Assembly: GCA_963666565.1 (NCBI GenBank)
Contig: OY762911.1
Coordinates: forward strand, 416,001-480,000
Reading direction: 5' to 3'
DNA from: Thermoanaerobaculia bacterium
GTDB taxonomy: Bacteria > Acidobacteriota > Thermoanaerobaculia > Multivoradales > Multivoraceae
DNA: 64,000 nucleotides
Position numbers and translations under genes: made by a program
Notes under the pieces: model-generated
Told to the model about the DNA's origin: nothing
The model's input: the letters and a program-made list of their open reading frames with translations, nothing else
Databases searched by the model: none
Part shown: positions 1 through 27,469 of the stretch, in pieces
How positions within the stretch are numbered: the first letter of the stretch is position 1
Layout of the letters: each line of letters opens with the position of its first letter

Positions 1-412
1 CGCCCGACGGTAGACGGAAGTCGGGAATGCTCGGCAAAGAGAGCGGCGGCGGCGAAGGCGCCACGACCGTGGCAGTGAACGTGACGGAAGCGCGGGCGCC
101 GTCACGGTCCGCGACGAAGTAGGAGACCGTGTAGGTCGTGTCGACCCAGACCGTCGGCAGCGTTCCTCTCGCACGCCGCGTCGACGGGAAGAACGTGATC
201 CCCGGCGGCAGACCGGACACGCTGTAGCTGTAGGGCGACCTGCCGCCCGACGCGGCCGGGAACACCGTGTCGATGACCCCGCCGGGCGGTAGCCGAAAGT
301 TGGGAATGCTCGGCAGGAACAGCGCCGGCCGTTCCGAGGCCCGTGCGGCCAGGGGCGCCACGGCGGCCAGAACGAGGAAGAAGGACAGTACTGGTGTGCC
401 AAGGCGCTTCAC
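1..412 (-). CDS. Secreted protein with repeated putative Ig-like (He_PIG-type) domains; N-terminal part, runs off the window edge
   Basis: Not in the ORF track. Manual translation from GTG at 412, with GGAGG upstream, gives MKRLGTPVLSFFLVLAAVAPLAARA (signal peptide), then ...FPAASGGRSPYSYSVSGLPPGITF...YTVSYFVADRDGARASVTFTATV. A second unit begins LPSIPDFRLP, matching LPSIPNFRLP in the first unit. Confidence 0.75.
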   Translation of the reverse strand, partial: MKRLGTPVLSFFLVLAAVAPLAARASERPALFLPSIPNFRLPPGGVIDTVFPAASGGRSPYSYSVSGLPPGITFFPSTRRARGTLPTVWVDTTYTVSYFVADRDGARASVTFTATVVAPSPPPLSLPSIPDFRLPSG

Positions 413-444
413 GATCCTCGCCTCCCGAGGTCATGTGGACGTCG

Positions 445-684
445 AGATAAGGGCGATTGTCTAAACAGAGAAAACGCTTGATTCGTGACTTGGTCGTCAC
501 CTAGACTCCGGAGACCTCCTGTGAAGCCGAAAAAAGTGTCGGCGAGCCGCCCCTTGGTGCGGAAGGCACCGTCAATCGCGTCCTGGACACTGAGATCCAC
601 CCGCTTCGGGACCCAGGAAGGCAGCCTCAGGAGAAGAGCGGGACTTGACAAGCGCGATTTCCTGGCAGACAATCGCCCTTATCT
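445..684. repeat. Perfect 18-bp inverted repeats (445-462 and 667-684) bounding a 240-bp segment; putative tyrosine-recombinase core sites
   Basis: AGATAAGGGCGATTGTCT at 445-462 and its exact reverse complement AGACAATCGCCCTTATCT at 667-684. Each site is itself a dyad (AGATAA-N6-TTGTCT). Confidence 0.85.
645..673 (+). promoter_or_regulatory. Sigma70-type promoter for the recombinase, overlapping the right inverted repeat
   Basis: TTGACA (645-650), a 17-nt spacer, then GACAAT (668-673). Confidence 0.6.
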
Positions 685-776
685 GCCCTGACTGCCGACG
701 GCCCAAAACCCCGTCGTCCTGACCTAGGATCGGCCCTCGTTGCAAGCGGAGTCCCCGGCCGAACCCCTCCCGGACG

Positions 777-1649
777 ATGGACAAGAGCGCCTACGCAGCC
801 AACACCCGCAAGGCATACAGCCACGTCATCCAGCGCTTCAACGCGTTCCTGGGAGGCCGCGCTGCCGAGGACGCCACCATCGCGGCCTTTCTTGAGTCCG
901 AGGCCGAACGCGGCCTCGCGCCCGCGTCCCTGTCGCTCGTCTCCGCGGCGATCGGGGCCCAGGCGCAGTCCGCCGGCGCGGACGATCCTCGGGGCCGGCT
1001 GACCTACCAGACCCTCGGACGCCTGAAGAGAACGCACAGCGCCCGCGGCGGGGGACAGGTTGCCGGGCTCAAGCGGGAGGACGTCGACGCAGTCGCGACG
1101 CTCGCGGCCACTGAAGGCACGACGGCCGGACTACGCGATGCCGCTCTTCTCCGCCTCGGTAGCGATTGCTTGCTGAGGATCAGCGAACTGGCAGCCGTTC
1201 ATGTGAAGCACCTCAAGCGCGCGGAGGACGGGAGCGGCTGCCTGAAAGTGCCCCGGAGCAAGACGGACCAGGAAGGCGAAGGCCAAACGCTCTACGTCTG
1301 CAAGGCGACGATGGCGGCGATCGCCGCCTGGCGGGAGGCCTCCGGGATCGGGTCCGGGCCTCTGTTCCGCGGCGTCTCCAAAGGAGGAACCGTCGGCGAG
1401 GCGGCGCTGACCGAGAGCGGGATGCGGAAGATCATCCGCCGACGGGCCTGGGCGGCGGGTTTCCGGAGGCGCGTGAGCGGACATTCCCTCCGCGTGGGCA
1501 GCGCTCAGTCGCTCGTCGCCAGAGGCGCCTCGACCGCCGAACTCATGCAGGCCGGGAGATGGAAAGACCCCAAGACAGCCGCCCGCTATGCCGCCAATGA
1601 ACTGGCGGCCAACGGCGCTGTCGCGAGGTTCTTCGAGGACGACCGCTGA
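777..1649 (+). CDS. Cre-like tyrosine recombinase/integrase
   Basis: RDAALL...LRISEL (catalytic R), RSKTDQ (K), GHSLRVG (HxxR), GRW (W, as in Cre), ARY (Y). N-terminal NTRKAY helical domain. Confidence 0.92.
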   Translation: MDKSAYAANTRKAYSHVIQRFNAFLGGRAAEDATIAAFLESEAERGLAPASLSLVSAAIGAQAQSAGADDPRGRLTYQTLGRLKRTHSARGGGQVAGLKREDVDAVATLAATEGTTAGLRDAALLRLGSDCLLRISELAAVHVKHLKRAEDGSGCLKVPRSKTDQEGEGQTLYVCKATMAAIAAWREASGIGSGPLFRGVSKGGTVGEAALTESGMRKIIRRRAWAAGFRRRVSGHSLRVGSAQSLVARGASTAELMQAGRWKDPKTAARYAANELAANGAVARFFEDDR

Positions 1650-1774
1650 CAGCCCGACACGCGCCACACGTTCCCAGGGCAGGACGTGAGCCTTGCGGTT
1701 GAGCCAAGTCTCGGGGCGAAGCAGCAGGCGCAATCGCCGCCGCTTCGCGGCGCACTTTTCTGGCCGCCTCCGGC

Positions 1775-1802
1775 GGCAGCGGGTCAGAGGACCCGCGCAC
1801 CC
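1775..1802 (+). repeat. REP-like palindromic repeat, single copy
   Basis: GGCAGCGGGTCAGAGGACCCGCGCACCC, a variant of the 28-bp unit seen throughout the window. Confidence 0.75.
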
Positions 1803-1810
1803 AGTGGCCG

Positions 1811-2401
1811 CTAGTTCGAGTCGCCGTTGCCGGCGGTCCAGCTCGGCAGGGAGGCCGGGTCGATCCCCAAGGAGGCGAGCGCGCCGGACCAGGCGTCGAC
1901 CGGGTCGCCGGAGAAGACGATGGACTCCTCGACCGGCACCGTCAGCCAGTCGCTGCGGCCGACCTCCTGCATCAACTGGCCCGGCGCCCAGCCGGCGTGG
2001 CCCAGGAGCAGCCTCATCCGGTCCGGCGCGCTGCGGGCGAGCGTGCGCAGCGCGAGGATGTTCTGTGTGGCGCCGACGCCTGGAGCGATCTCGGCGATGC
2101 CGTCCCGCTCCAGGCCGGTCATGCCGTCGAGCGACAGCAAGACCGTGCCGACCTCGGGCTGCACCGGACCGCCGACGTAGGCCGTCGCTTCCGAGCGGCC
2201 GGACCACTCGATGTCCAGCTCCCGCAGGACCTCGTCGACCTTGAGCTGGCTCGGCCGGTTGACGACGAAACCCAGGCTGCCCCCCTCGCCGCCGTCCTCG
2301 TGCGCGGCAAGCAGTACGACCGCCCGGAAGAAGAACGGATCGAGCACCTGGGGCATGGCGACCAGCAGAGTCGGCGTCTCGAAATCGTCCAGCCCGGACA
2401 T
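1811..2401 (-). CDS. YqgE/AlgH family (DUF179) protein
   Basis: LLVAMPQVLDPFF..RAVVLL...GSLGFVVNRP, YVGGPV, LGHAGWAPGQL..E...DW. ATG at 2401. Confidence 0.88.
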   Translation of the reverse strand: MSGLDDFETPTLLVAMPQVLDPFFFRAVVLLAAHEDGGEGGSLGFVVNRPSQLKVDEVLRELDIEWSGRSEATAYVGGPVQPEVGTVLLSLDGMTGLERDGIAEIAPGVGATQNILALRTLARSAPDRMRLLLGHAGWAPGQLMQEVGRSDWLTVPVEESIVFSGDPVDAWSGALASLGIDPASLPSWTAGNGDSN

Positions 2402-2546
2402 GGGCGCGACTCTACACGCGGCCGGATGGCCGGCGCACCGACAGCGCCGACCGCCGCGGCGCTTTGGGTAGTCTCCGGGTTGCATGGAACGGGCCGCCGG
2501 AAGCGGGCCGGCCTGCGGCCGGCGAATCTCCCGGGCCGCCTGCGGC

Positions 2547-2574
2547 GGCAGCGGGTCGGAAGACCCGCGCACCC
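2547..2574 (+). repeat. REP-like palindromic repeat, single copy
   Basis: GGCAGCGGGTCGGAAGACCCGCGCACCC. Confidence 0.8.
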
Positions 2575-2627
2575 AGCGGACGGCCAGCTCCACAAGCGAC
2601 ACTTGAATCACGAAGAACGAGCCAGAC

Positions 2628-5369
2628 ATGATGAACAGCTTCGGCGCGATCAAGACGATGTCCGCCTCCGGCCGATCCTTCCGGATCGCCCACCTGCCGA
2701 CCCTTGGCGACGCCGGCCTGCCGGTGGAGCGCCTGCCGTACGCCCTGAAGATCCTGCTGGAGAACCTGCTCCGGCGGGAGGACGGCCGCGTCGTTCCGGC
2801 CGCGGACATCGAGGCCGTGGCGCGCTGGGAACCTCGGGCGGAACCGAACGTCGAGATCGCCTTCATGCCCGGCCGGGTGCTGCTCCAGGACTTCACCGGC
2901 GTCCCCGCGGTGGCCGACCTGGCCGCCATGCGGGACGCCATGGCGGCGATGGGCAGCGACGCCGCGAAGATCAATCCGCTGCAGCCGGCGGAGCTCGTGA
3001 TCGACCACTCGGTCCAGGTGGACGAGTACGGTTCGGCGGCCGCGCTCCTGATCAACGCGGAACGCGAGTTCGAGCGCAACGAGGAGCGCTACCTGTTCCT
3101 GCGCTGGGGCCAGACCGCGTTCGAGAACTTCCGCGTCGTGCCTCCGGCGACCGGCATCGTCCACCAGGTCAACCTGGAGTACCTGGCGCGCGGCGTCATG
3201 CACTCGCCGAACGGCCACGCCGAGCCGCCCTTCGCCTATCCCGACACCCTGGTGGGCACCGACTCCCACACGACGATGATCAACGGCCTGGGCGTCCTGG
3301 GCTGGGGCGTGGGCGGCATCGAGGCGGAGGCGGCCATGCTCGGCCAGCCGATCGCCATGCTGGTGCCCCAGGTCGTCGGCTTCCGCCTGGTGGGCGCCCT
3401 GCCGGAGGGCACGACCGCCACCGACCTCGTGCTGCGGGTCACCGAGATGCTCCGCAACCACGGCGTCGTCGGCAAGTTCGTCGAGTTCTTCGGCCCCGGG
3501 CTCGCCGAGCTCCGGCTCGCCGACCGGGCGACGATCGCGAACATGGCGCCGGAGTACGGCGCCACCTGCGGCATCTTCCCGATCGACCGCGCCGCCATCG
3601 ACTACCTCCGGTTCACCGGGCGCAGCGAGGCGCAGGTGGAACTGGTCGAGGCCTACTGCCGCGAGCAGGGGCTCTTCCACGGTCCGGACGCGCCCGAGGC
3701 CGAGTACAGCGACACGCTGGAGCTCGACCTGGCGACCGTCGAGCCGTCGCTGGCCGGACCGCGGCGGCCCCAGGACCGGGTGCCGCTGTCCGGCGTGAAG
3801 GAGTCCTTCCTCGGCCAGTTGCCGCAACTCTCGCCCCGCGGCGGCCTGCCGGTGCTCGACGGCGACGACGGCGCCGGCGCGGACGACGAGGCCCCGGCGG
3901 CGGACGAGACCGGCGACGCCGGCGAGCGGCCCGAAGTCGTGGACGGTTCCGTCGTCATCGCCGCGATCACGAGCTGCACGAACACCTCGAACCCGTCCGT
4001 CATGCTGGCCGCCGGGCTGCTGGCGAAGAAGGCCGTCGAGGCCGGACTGCGGACCCGGCCGTGGGTGAAGACGAGCCTGGCGCCCGGCTCCAAGGTCGTC
4101 ACCGACTACCTGGCCGAGGCCGGCCTGACCGCCTACCTGGAGCAGCTCGGCTTCCACACGGTGGGCTACGGCTGCACGACCTGCATCGGCAACAGCGGCC
4201 CGCTGCCTCCCGCGACCTCGGCCGCGATCGCCGAGGGCGAGCTGGTCGCCGTCTCCGTCCTCTCCGGCAACCGCAACTTCGAGGGCCGGATCTCGAGCGA
4301 AGTGCGCGCCAACTACCTCGCCTCGCCGCCCCTGGTGGTGGCATACGCGCTGGCCGGGCGCATCGACATCGACCTCCACGGGGAGCCCCTGGCCGACGGT
4401 CCGGACGGTCCCGTCTACCTGCGCGACATCTGGCCCGCCCAGAGCGACATCCAGGCCGCGCTCGAGACCTCGCTGCGGCCGGAGATGTTCAAGCGCCAGT
4501 ACTCCGACGTCTTCGCGGGCAGCGAGGCGTGGCAGGCGCTCGACGTGCCCGCCGGACAGACCTTCGCCTGGCGGGAGGATTCGACGTACGTCAAGCAACC
4601 GCCCTTCTTCGTCGACATGCCGCGCCGACCTGCGCCGGTCCAGGACATCGCCGGCGCCCGGGTGCTGGCCCTGCTCGGCGACACGGTGACGACGGACCAC
4701 ATCTCGCCGGCCGGCCCGATCAGCCCGGACAGCCCGGCCGCCGACTACCTGCGCGGCCTCGGCGTCGAGCAGGCGCAGTTCAACTCCTACGGCGCCCGCC
4801 GCGGCAACCACGAGGTGATGATGCGGGGCACGTTCGCCAACGTCCGCCTCCGCAACCGACTGGTGCCGGGAGTCGAGGGCGGCTACACCGTGCTCCTGCC
4901 GGAGGGCGAACAGATGTCGATCTTCGACGCGGCGATGGCCTACCGCGACCGCGGCGTCCCCCAGATCGTCCTGGCCGGCGTCGAGTACGGCACGGGTTCC
5001 TCGCGCGACTGGGCGGCCAAGGGGTCCCGGCTGCTCGGCGTGAGCGCCGTCATCGCCAAGGGCTACGAACGGATCCACCGCAGCAACCTGGTGGGGATGG
5101 GGGTCGCGCCGCTCGAGTTCCTGGAGGGCGAAGGCGCCGCCGAACTGGGGCTGACGGGCTTCGAGGAGTACGCCATCGAGGGGCTTGCCGCCGGGCTCGC
5201 GGGGGACTTCGAACCCGGCCTGGAGGTCACCGTCCGGGCCGCGGGCGACGACGGCGAGATCGCCTTCCGCGCCCGCGTCCGCCTCGACACGCCCCAGGAG
5301 GCGGAGTATTACCGGCATGCGGGCATCCTCCAGTACGTGCTGCGGCAGCTTCTTGACGACGACGCCTGA
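2628..5369 (+). CDS. acnA: Aconitate hydratase A
   Basis: RVLLQDFTGVPAVADLAAMR, DHSVQVD, AAITSCTNTSNP, GYGCTTCIGNSG, SGNRNFEGR, TTDHISPAG, GSSRDWAAKG. Confidence 0.97.
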   Translation: MMNSFGAIKTMSASGRSFRIAHLPTLGDAGLPVERLPYALKILLENLLRREDGRVVPAADIEAVARWEPRAEPNVEIAFMPGRVLLQDFTGVPAVADLAAMRDAMAAMGSDAAKINPLQPAELVIDHSVQVDEYGSAAALLINAEREFERNEERYLFLRWGQTAFENFRVVPPATGIVHQVNLEYLARGVMHSPNGHAEPPFAYPDTLVGTDSHTTMINGLGVLGWGVGGIEAEAAMLGQPIAMLVPQVVGFRLVGALPEGTTATDLVLRVTEMLRNHGVVGKFVEFFGPGLAELRLADRATIANMAPEYGATCGIFPIDRAAIDYLRFTGRSEAQVELVEAYCREQGLFHGPDAPEAEYSDTLELDLATVEPSLAGPRRPQDRVPLSGVKESFLGQLPQLSPRGGLPVLDGDDGAGADDEAPAADETGDAGERPEVVDGSVVIAAITSCTNTSNPSVMLAAGLLAKKAVEAGLRTRPWVKTSLAPGSKVVTDYLAEAGLTAYLEQLGFHTVGYGCTTCIGNSGPLPPATSAAIAEGELVAVSVLSGNRNFEGRISSEVRANYLASPPLVVAYALAGRIDIDLHGEPLADGPDGPVYLRDIWPAQSDIQAALETSLRPEMFKRQYSDVFAGSEAWQALDVPAGQTFAWREDSTYVKQPPFFVDMPRRPAPVQDIAGARVLALLGDTVTTDHISPAGPISPDSPAADYLRGLGVEQAQFNSYGARRGNHEVMMRGTFANVRLRNRLVPGVEGGYTVLLPEGEQMSIFDAAMAYRDRGVPQIVLAGVEYGTGSSRDWAAKGSRLLGVSAVIAKGYERIHRSNLVGMGVAPLEFLEGEGAAELGLTGFEEYAIEGLAAGLAGDFEPGLEVTVRAAGDDGEIAFRARVRLDTPQEAEYYRHAGILQYVLRQLLDDDA

Positions 5370-27311: not shown

Positions 27312-27469
27312 GGACCGAAGGGAAGGGGTCCCAGCGGCCGCTCGCGCTCTCTGAGTAGAGGGAAGGTCGGCGCTCGCTTCGGTCGGCTGCGTTCCGCTCC
27401 GGCGTCGGTTTCGGGACGACCTGGGAAGTCACTTGCCTCCAGCCCGCTGGGACCCCTTCCCTTCGGTCC
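27312..27469 (-). repeat. ~160-bp structured element, copy 1 (26-bp perfect terminal inverted repeat)
   Basis: GGACCGAAGGGAAGGGGTCCCAGCGG (27312-27337) and its exact reverse complement (27444-27469). Interior is homologous to 47150-47321. Confidence 0.8.

Follow-up and report, generated by a model that had tools for sequence, protein, structure and literature searches.

Inverted, spacer-matched core sites around a recombinase-facing promoter: a candidate invertible-promoter module beside a Cre-like recombinase gene in a sponge-associated acidobacterium

Is the short segment between a gene for a Cre-like tyrosine recombinase and a divergent gene for a secreted protein with He_PIG repeats a DNA switch operated by the neighbouring enzyme, or a static piece of regulatory DNA? 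The question is raised by positions 445-684 of a 64,000-nucleotide (nt) stretch, hereafter the window, of contig OY762911.1 from a Thermoanaerobaculia bacterium (GenBank GCA_963666565.1; contig positions 416,001 to 480,000, forward strand). An initial annotation had proposed that flipping the segment moves a promoter from the recombinase gene to the gene for the secreted protein. We suggest, from comparison of this locus with its homologues, that it is an invertible-promoter module which would switch between the recombinase and the secreted He_PIG protein and which is strongly biased or rarely fired; we think this explanation probable, if not comfortably so.

The segment is bounded by two 18-nt repeats that are inverted, 100% complementary and 204 nt apart. 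The left core site (445-462) reads AGATAA-GGGCGA-TTGTCT, that is outer arm, 6-nt spacer and inner arm, and the right core site (667-684; AGACAA-TCGCCC-TTATCT) is its exact reverse complement. Between them lies the interior of the candidate invertible segment (463-666; 204 base pairs, bp), conserved at its right end and poorly so in the remainder. The dyad within each site is imperfect (the reverse complement of TTGTCT, AGACAA, matches AGATAA at 5/6 positions) and its central 6-mer is asymmetric. The hexamer CGCTTG stands 12 nt inward from each repeat; its right copy overlaps the -35 element of the promoter described below (TTGACAAGCG), and the left counterpart of this stretch, on the opposite strand, is GAATCAAGCG. 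The 240-bp segment with its perfect repeats, the AGATAA/TTGTCT dyad, the GGGCGA spacer and the CGCTTG motifs are all as initially annotated.

The 18-mer occurs at two places in the 4.79-Mb genome, with no third copy and one unrelated match at three mismatches. The genome contains 320 exactly matching inverted pairs, 16 nt or longer and 50-400 nt apart; nearly all of those listed belong to GC-rich repeat families, and the pair 445-462/667-684 is the most AT-rich among the pairs listed (56% A+T, in a genome of 70% G+C). The paired repeats are real and far from chance. Open reading frames (ORFs) of 68 and 87 amino acids (aa) within 445-684 have no Pfam match, and since the length differences among homologous segments are insertions or deletions of ~10 nt that are not multiples of three, the segment is non-coding. 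Rfam gave nothing above chance in 1-3000, and there are no terminator-like sites in 300-1000. A GANTC motif in the left interior was dropped as its position is not conserved among homologous loci, as was a sigma-54 reading of the right site, since GG and GC stand one position out of their proper spacing in the window and this spacing is, by eye, not conserved. Several relatives (L026, L027, L028, L029, L039 and others) carry mid-segment a palindromic block, GGCCA-(A/G)AA-(T/C)GGCC, which is not evident in the window; blocks of this GGCCA-AAA-TGGCC type may be binding sites for an accessory factor.

The two sites recur at homologous loci. For comparison we took 26 close loci, with protein identities of 64% or more, from the same acidobacterial genus, 'Candidatus Multivorans', and from metagenomes, and inspected 600 nt upstream in each; the close relatives are metagenome-assembled genomes of 'Candidatus Multivorans', Thermoanaerobaculia and Holophagales, and one run with the locus is labelled sponge metagenome. 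Both sites stand at the same position in 19 of the 26, the right site and promoter only in four (L034c, L037, L200, L207) and neither site in two (L031, L032); a contig end cuts the last (L202). In the 19 paired loci the sites keep a 6-6-6 form, nGRYAA-N6-TTRYCn. Nine spacers occur across loci (GGGCGA, TTGCCA, ATGCAA, ATGCGA, ATGCCA, GGGGGA, TGACGA, CGGCAA, TGGCAA). The two spacers of a locus match fully in 17 of 19 cases and are one base off in the other two (L030, L034a), giving 2 mismatches in 114 positions, a count biased by the filter behind the site table, which required at least 5/6 spacer identity. The arms within a locus differ at 70 of 228 positions. An exact-seed scan and a 14-mer scan are free of the spacer-identity filter, and the former turned up inverted repeats, 10-16 nt long, at the corresponding position of 8/19 loci, centred on the spacer plus 2 nt per arm. 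Identical spacers with freer arms within loci are the signature of strand-exchange sites in inverted orientation. A tyrosine recombinase requires such identity, limited to the spacer, for strand exchange; an operator pair does not. The paired core sites proposed initially are thus borne out by conservation, by co-varying spacers and by freer arms; two inverted sites with matching crossover regions, as expected of an inverton, are present, and their likeliest role is that of functional crossover sites for the neighbouring Cre-like enzyme.

Further afield, sites of this type, with additional spacers, recur in the distant homologues L060 and L066 (43-44% identity, unclassified bacteria), which also carry a TTGACA promoter inside the segment. 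No such site pair was found within 3 kb in other relatives at 44-47% identity. A different layout is seen at a metagenomic locus with a 47%-identical recombinase (L122:2109-2293), where inverted sites with a TTTCCG spacer and a 16-nt perfect core frame ~150 nt. The site type is the same there, and the pair lies ~950 nt downstream of the gene for the recombinase and ~350 nt upstream of one for a small secreted protein.

The spacing of the sites is also constrained. Centre-to-centre distances fall at 168-169, 181-182, 191, 200-202, 211-212, 220-222 and 232 nt, stepping by ~10.5 bp (Rayleigh R 0.82-0.84 at a period of 10.25-10.5 nt); none of 5000 random sets matched this for the 14 distinct values, and a conservative 12-value set gave p = 0.0006. 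The interior is poorly conserved while the distances are phased, and what is kept is therefore how the two sites are turned relative to each other on the helix. On the geometry of the loci, this is an indication that protein brings the phased sites together.

A sigma-70-type promoter, TTGACA-N17-GACAAT (645-673, plus strand), lies in the right end of the segment and points at the recombinase. It is the sole promoter-like site in 300-1000 on either strand (10/12, where shuffles expect 0.1), and its -10 element consists of the right site's inner arm and the first spacer base. The promoter is inside the right end of the segment, with its -35 conserved, in every homologous locus that retains the right site. 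The left end has a -10-like hexamer with no usable -35 17 nt off in the sequenced state (GAATCA in the window, no better in relatives). The promoter arrangement first annotated is accordingly found here and in the homologous loci, and by its geometry the internal promoter would serve a different gene in each orientation.

The recombinase gene (777-1649, plus strand; leader, placed from the position of the promoter, at 685-776) encodes a protein of 290 aa that matches PF00589 (E-value 5.4e-12; 46.3 bits, cut-off 27.1). All 17 of its PDB sequence matches are Cre or the engineered Tre variant (E 5.7e-17 to 8e-15), so that its description as Cre-like stands. R134, K162, H236, R239, W262 and Y271 align with the catalytic residues of Cre, including the Trp at the second-His position (GRWKD, aligned with GGWTN of Cre). 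Among 22 homologues R134, K162, H236, R239 and Y271 are invariant, and W262 is present in 21, with one gap. The ratio of nonsynonymous to synonymous substitution rates (dN/dS) between nearest neighbours is 0.05-0.41, and on these values the recombinase appears to be kept active under purifying selection. The protein falls below the curated cut-offs of other classes: 16.1 bits against 222 for NF007371 (the NCBIfam tyrosine-type DNA invertase family, FimB/FimE/MrpI type), 36.6 against 335 for XerC, 34.8 against 330 for XerD and 15.1 against 265 for integron integrase. Genomes of Pseudomonas and Sphingomonadaceae, as well as plasmids, contain relatives with 31-36% identity; the plasmid-collection matches, at no more than 32.5% identity over full length, carry the generic names 'tyrosine-type recombinase/integrase' or 'site-specific integrase'.

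On the other side of the segment, the divergent gene (2-412, minus strand; 746-aa product, the gene continuing past the window start to G000:C1:414175) begins with a GTG at 412, 32 nt from the left repeat. Its leader (413-444, minus strand, from alignment of the left flanks) has a GGGAGG Shine-Dalgarno sequence 8 nt before the start; in homologous loci the start codon lies ~26-32 nt from the left site and the Shine-Dalgarno sequence is conserved. The product has, by eye, a Sec-type signal peptide, followed by three He_PIG Ig-like repeats (PF05345, E 2.7e-21, 3 stretches), poly-Pro linkers and a C-terminal domain; a PPC-like domain is weak (E 0.049, below cut-off). For the C-terminal domain (residues 525-746) there was no Pfam match even at E 10 and no Atlas match, and a single-sequence AlphaFold model reached a predicted local distance difference test (pLDDT) score of 32. 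Of the surface protein proposed initially, the secreted He_PIG protein starting near the left repeat is there, and a surface location is not demonstrated.

This gene partnership is conserved. The directly adjacent divergent ORF encodes a He_PIG protein at 6/6 loci scanned (the window, L027, L028, L032, L033, L039); ORFs without a He_PIG match, three in L031, L035 and L038 and one in L030, are more distant and not the directly adjacent genes. The neighbours have the He_PIG/PPC part in common and differ at their C-termini, where L027 and L033 have Peptidase_M23 and L032 has Aspzincin_M35, the latter scoring below its cut-off. To judge from this pattern, He_PIG/PPC proteins with varying C-terminal heads resemble polymorphic secreted effectors. 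Elsewhere in the genome, giant He_PIG-repeat frames of 8357, 3145, 2884 and 2865 aa (G000:C1:2301427-2308875, 3167790-3174230, 4331541-4335305 and 3074789-3078547) contain repeats ~40% identical to those of the switch neighbour; the genome holds no close paralogue of the neighbour protein itself.

From these features a mechanism can be proposed. The Cre-like recombinase would bind the two inverted 18-bp core sites, which share an asymmetric 6-bp spacer, and a whole number of helical turns between the sites would let them meet across the 204-bp loop; strand exchange in the spacer would then invert the segment. In the sequenced state, the single strong promoter at the right end of the segment is predicted to drive the recombinase gene. 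Inversion would place the promoter, intact from its -35 across the 17 intervening nt to the -10 formed by the inner arm, beside the left outer arm. The transcript would then begin within the left site, ~35-40 nt ahead of the start codon of the He_PIG gene. The secreted He_PIG/PPC protein would be on and the recombinase would be left without the segment promoter. Strand exchange, inversion and then the driving of the He_PIG gene by the promoter are steps that we infer.

A number of observations weigh against such inversion, in addition to the bias of the spacer filter noted above. There are no inverted copies among the 19 close and two distant paired loci, segment interiors align in the forward sense alone, and the promoter also faces the recombinase in five loci with the right end only. 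Of four public runs, X1, X2 and X4 share an organism label and a study, and in each of them a contig of 1540 nt spans 246-1700 without a difference; in run X5, the sponge metagenome, a 1084-nt contig covers 246-1329 in the reference orientation and comes from a relative with 57 differences over 1084 aligned positions (~95% identical). No strand-changing joints are listed in the contigs of the four runs. Conserved arms are only ~6 bp long. Recombination sites of Cre or Xer usually have arms of 11-13 bp. Furthermore, recombinase genes are intact and constrained where the left site or the whole segment has been lost (L034c, L037, L200, L207, L031, L032); dN/dS at loci without the left site still indicates constraint, as pairwise values that cannot date the loss. 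Finally, a promoter that leaves the recombinase should lock in and enrich the He_PIG-ON state, and the assemblies show the opposite.

The coexistence of both orientations in a population or among strains, another mark of an inverton, was not found among the 21 paired loci and the contigs of the four runs. Since contigs lose rare variants, a rare inversion is compatible with them. The comparison of orientation across relatives suggested in the initial annotation gave one orientation throughout, which is half of what that annotation had itself named as grounds for refutation. Its self-limiting switch fares no better: this would accumulate the He_PIG-ON state, the reverse of what is assembled. 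The flipping of the promoter between the recombinase and He_PIG genes, at the centre of that proposal, finds support in the geometry and in the conserved paired sites, and is opposed by the single orientation in loci and contigs. Because no other state was seen, a switch must strongly favour the recombinase-facing one. Because the inverted state went unseen, the claim of a switch rests on anatomy and co-variation, and site anatomy, spacer co-variation, phasing, promoter position, catalytic residues and gene partnership are directly observed.

The single orientation could also come from a static regulatory loop, in which the recombinase acts only as a DNA-binding autoregulator at both sites, folding the 204 bp into a loop that keeps one or both genes repressed, with no inversion in nature. 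The right site overlaps the -10 of the recombinase's own promoter and the left site stands just upstream of the He_PIG leader, helical phasing is a requirement of a repression loop, and one orientation in all loci and contigs is what such a loop would give; resolvase and recombinase sites that contain promoters and regulate them are known from the res sites of the Tn3 family (PMC7157771). However, an operator pair needs no identical central 6-mers alongside 31% arm differences, no intact R-K-H-R-W-Y set under purifying selection and no consistently inverted site orientation, and we consider the static loop unlikely, while keeping it in serious contention. A further possibility retains recombination and abandons reversibility: a one-way, self-extinguishing developmental switch instead of reversible phase variation. 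A minority of cells would flip the promoter from the recombinase to the secreted polymorphic He_PIG/PPC effector (with, in relatives, a peptidoglycan-hydrolase or metalloprotease head) and be irreversibly committed, and the propagated, hence assembled, lineage would keep the recombinase-facing 'germ-line' orientation. This would account for the crossover-site signature together with a recombinase-side promoter in 21/21 loci, as well as for the repeated loss by deletion of the left site along with the effector start; we regard it as distinctly unlikely.

Alternatively, the recombinase could serve another kind of recombination, namely resolution, integration or the exchange of the island described below or of He_PIG cassettes, in the manner of Tn4651 TnpS/rst or of integrons, the inverted pair being incidental. 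Such traffic would fit a module that sits within a 7.6-kb island (dut/algH) absent from most congeners, that ranges in copy number from zero to several in a genome, with numerous gene fragments and, in G035, three copies in tandem, whose He_PIG C-terminal domains are polymorphic, and at several loci of which 5'-truncated He_PIG genes are fused into the segment; the relatives at 31-36% identity in Pseudomonas and Sphingomonadaceae genomes and on plasmids point the same way. Yet the genome holds no third copy of the site, the island ends lack one, the truncation junctions lie away from the core sites, and one core site suffices for resolution, whereas here two inverted sites are conserved and phased. 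PF01526, the Tn3 transposase, has no match in the whole genome (control genomes matched), and the partner is a He_PIG protein and not a TnpT-like helper. The last two findings also tell against the Tn4651-type TnpS resolution site that the initial annotation had offered as an alternative, a judgement drawn from the identity of the divergent gene and the missing transposase, as similarity to TnpT was not itself scored. We hold recombination of this kind to be more doubtful than either the static loop or the one-way switch. The 240-bp unit might also be a miniature inverted-repeat transposable element (MITE)-like non-autonomous element with 18-bp terminal inverted repeats that landed between the genes by chance, as its size and perfect terminal repeats would allow; we rejected this as extremely improbable, the unit being single-copy in the genome and free of a flanking target duplication, and keeping its place beside the recombinase across 19 loci whose differing repeats retain the 6-6-6 form. 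The biased or rarely fired invertible-promoter module remains our preferred explanation.

How does such a module compare with known systems? Functionally, the closest would be recombinase-adjacent invertible promoters such as MrpI/mrp of Proteus mirabilis, an element whose orientation is strongly biased by conditions (PMC7444556). The likeness consists of a tyrosine recombinase gene beside a short segment that is bounded by inverted repeats and carries a sigma-70 promoter for a divergent operon of exported proteins. Three differences can be named: unlike FimB or MrpI, the enzyme here is a two-domain Cre-like protein of 290 aa; unlike in mrp or fimS, the segment promoter is the recombinase's own; and the target is a secreted He_PIG/PPC protein and not fimbriae, in an uncultured sponge-associated acidobacterium. 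FimB/FimE-fimS of Escherichia coli has the same layout of an invertible promoter with adjacent recombinases. Cre of phage P1 is the closest relative of solved structure (E 5.7e-17); the enzyme here has its catalytic residues, with Trp at the second-His position, and the sites share with loxP a dyad around an asymmetric, direction-setting spacer. Identity to Cre is only ~25-30% in the catalytic domain, however, and the N-terminal domain here is shorter. The layout of loxP is 13-8-13, whereas the sites here are 6-6-6, two in number, chromosomal and fixed in inverted orientation beside the gene, with no phage or plasmid context; a test for lox-type sites with 13-bp arms and an 8-bp spacer found only ~6 conserved nt per arm and a 6-nt spacer.

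TnpS/TnpT-rst of the Tn4651 type also combines a divergent Cre-like recombinase gene with inverted repeats and promoters in the intergenic region (PMC7157771). The present locus differs in having no TnpT-like partner, Tn3-family transposase or transposon ends, and in having two equivalent core sites with the same spacer ~200 bp apart, where rst has one core and accessory repeats. The invertons of gut Bacteroidales are similar in that promoter segments lie between inverted repeats near genes for exported or surface products, and differ in being mostly served by other recombinase families, often in trans. In the literature we found no invertible promoter of Acidobacteria with a tyrosine recombinase and no Cre-like phase-variation invertase, with the proviso that supplements could list such loci; the stem 'Acidobacteri' is absent from the main text of the DeepInverton paper (PMC11602134).

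The module appears to come and go within the genus. Among 42 species genomes, 23 have a close homologue of the recombinase (E at most 1e-60), several of them in multiple copies and with many fragments besides, and a metagenome scan added two close loci (L120, L121) among the 80 retained. In the window genome the module lies inside a 7.6-kb island between dut and algH (G000:C1:410210-417810; L006:12210 to window 1810), which contains a 729-aa multi-pass membrane protein, a 534-aa protein without a family, the He_PIG gene, the switch and the recombinase, and the ends of which show no core-site sequence. algH itself is present in 42/42 genomes; recombinase-like DNA adjoins it in two of 29 loci compared (L212/G027, decayed, and L225/G029, at a contig end), and in nine of 13 loci examined the end of dut follows beyond it. 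As the island is absent from most congeners and the copy number is variable, the module is accessory, with fast turnover.

Decay and rearrangement can be seen at several of these loci. At L212 (G027:C1:2457549-2461133), a syntenic decayed module by algH, the equivalent of window 307-1248 is missing and the 3' part of the recombinase gene (79% DNA identity) is joined to He_PIG sequence. At L034 (G035:C1:3578000-3597999) three recombinase/He_PIG modules follow one another in tandem at intervals of 6.65 kb. Two of them retain both sites, with GGGGGA as spacer and one right site reading GGGGGC, and the third has the right site only, fused to a 5'-truncated He_PIG frame. In L034c, L037 and L207 such a truncated frame is fused into the segment, and in L200 other sequence replaces its left part. 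Independent deletions in L037, L207, L034c and L032 took the He_PIG start and the left site or whole segment and spared the recombinase, and these loci could be locked-off variants. We considered the truncation junctions of L034c, L037, L207 and L032 as products of the recombinase and rejected this, as they lie in differing places and none is at a core site.

Two unrelated repeat families were also seen in the window. A 63-nt GC-rich repeat is present in two copies, 83% alike, at 1748-1810 and 2520-2582; its core (GGGTGCGCGGGTCTTCCGACCCGC and variants) is behind most of the 320 genome-wide inverted pairs and also forms tandem arrays with a period of ~25-28 nt, e.g. at G000:C1:753903, 3003122 and 3244354. 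The other family, at 27312-27337 and 27444-27469 (G000:C1:443312-443469), has dozens of genome copies with inverted arms of 20-35 nt ending in ...GGGAGGGTCCCAGCGG-like sequence and a nearly constant gap of ~106-108 nt; by its form it looks like a small structured or mobile element.

Even if inversion is not confirmed, an intact recombinase beside phased, spacer-matched sites will still need another explanation. The natural series of loci offers at least nine orthogonal spacer specificities, and such compact enzyme-site pairs could become orthogonal recombination tools. The helically phased loop length bears on how tyrosine recombinases synapse sites ~200 bp apart. If inversion does occur, these loci would make up a family of recombinase-linked invertons in Acidobacteriota, carried by uncultured symbionts of sponges, with a Cre-like enzyme and very short 6-6-6 sites, and symbionts in sponge tissue would hold a polymorphic secreted effector silent in the bulk of the population and release it by DNA rearrangement.

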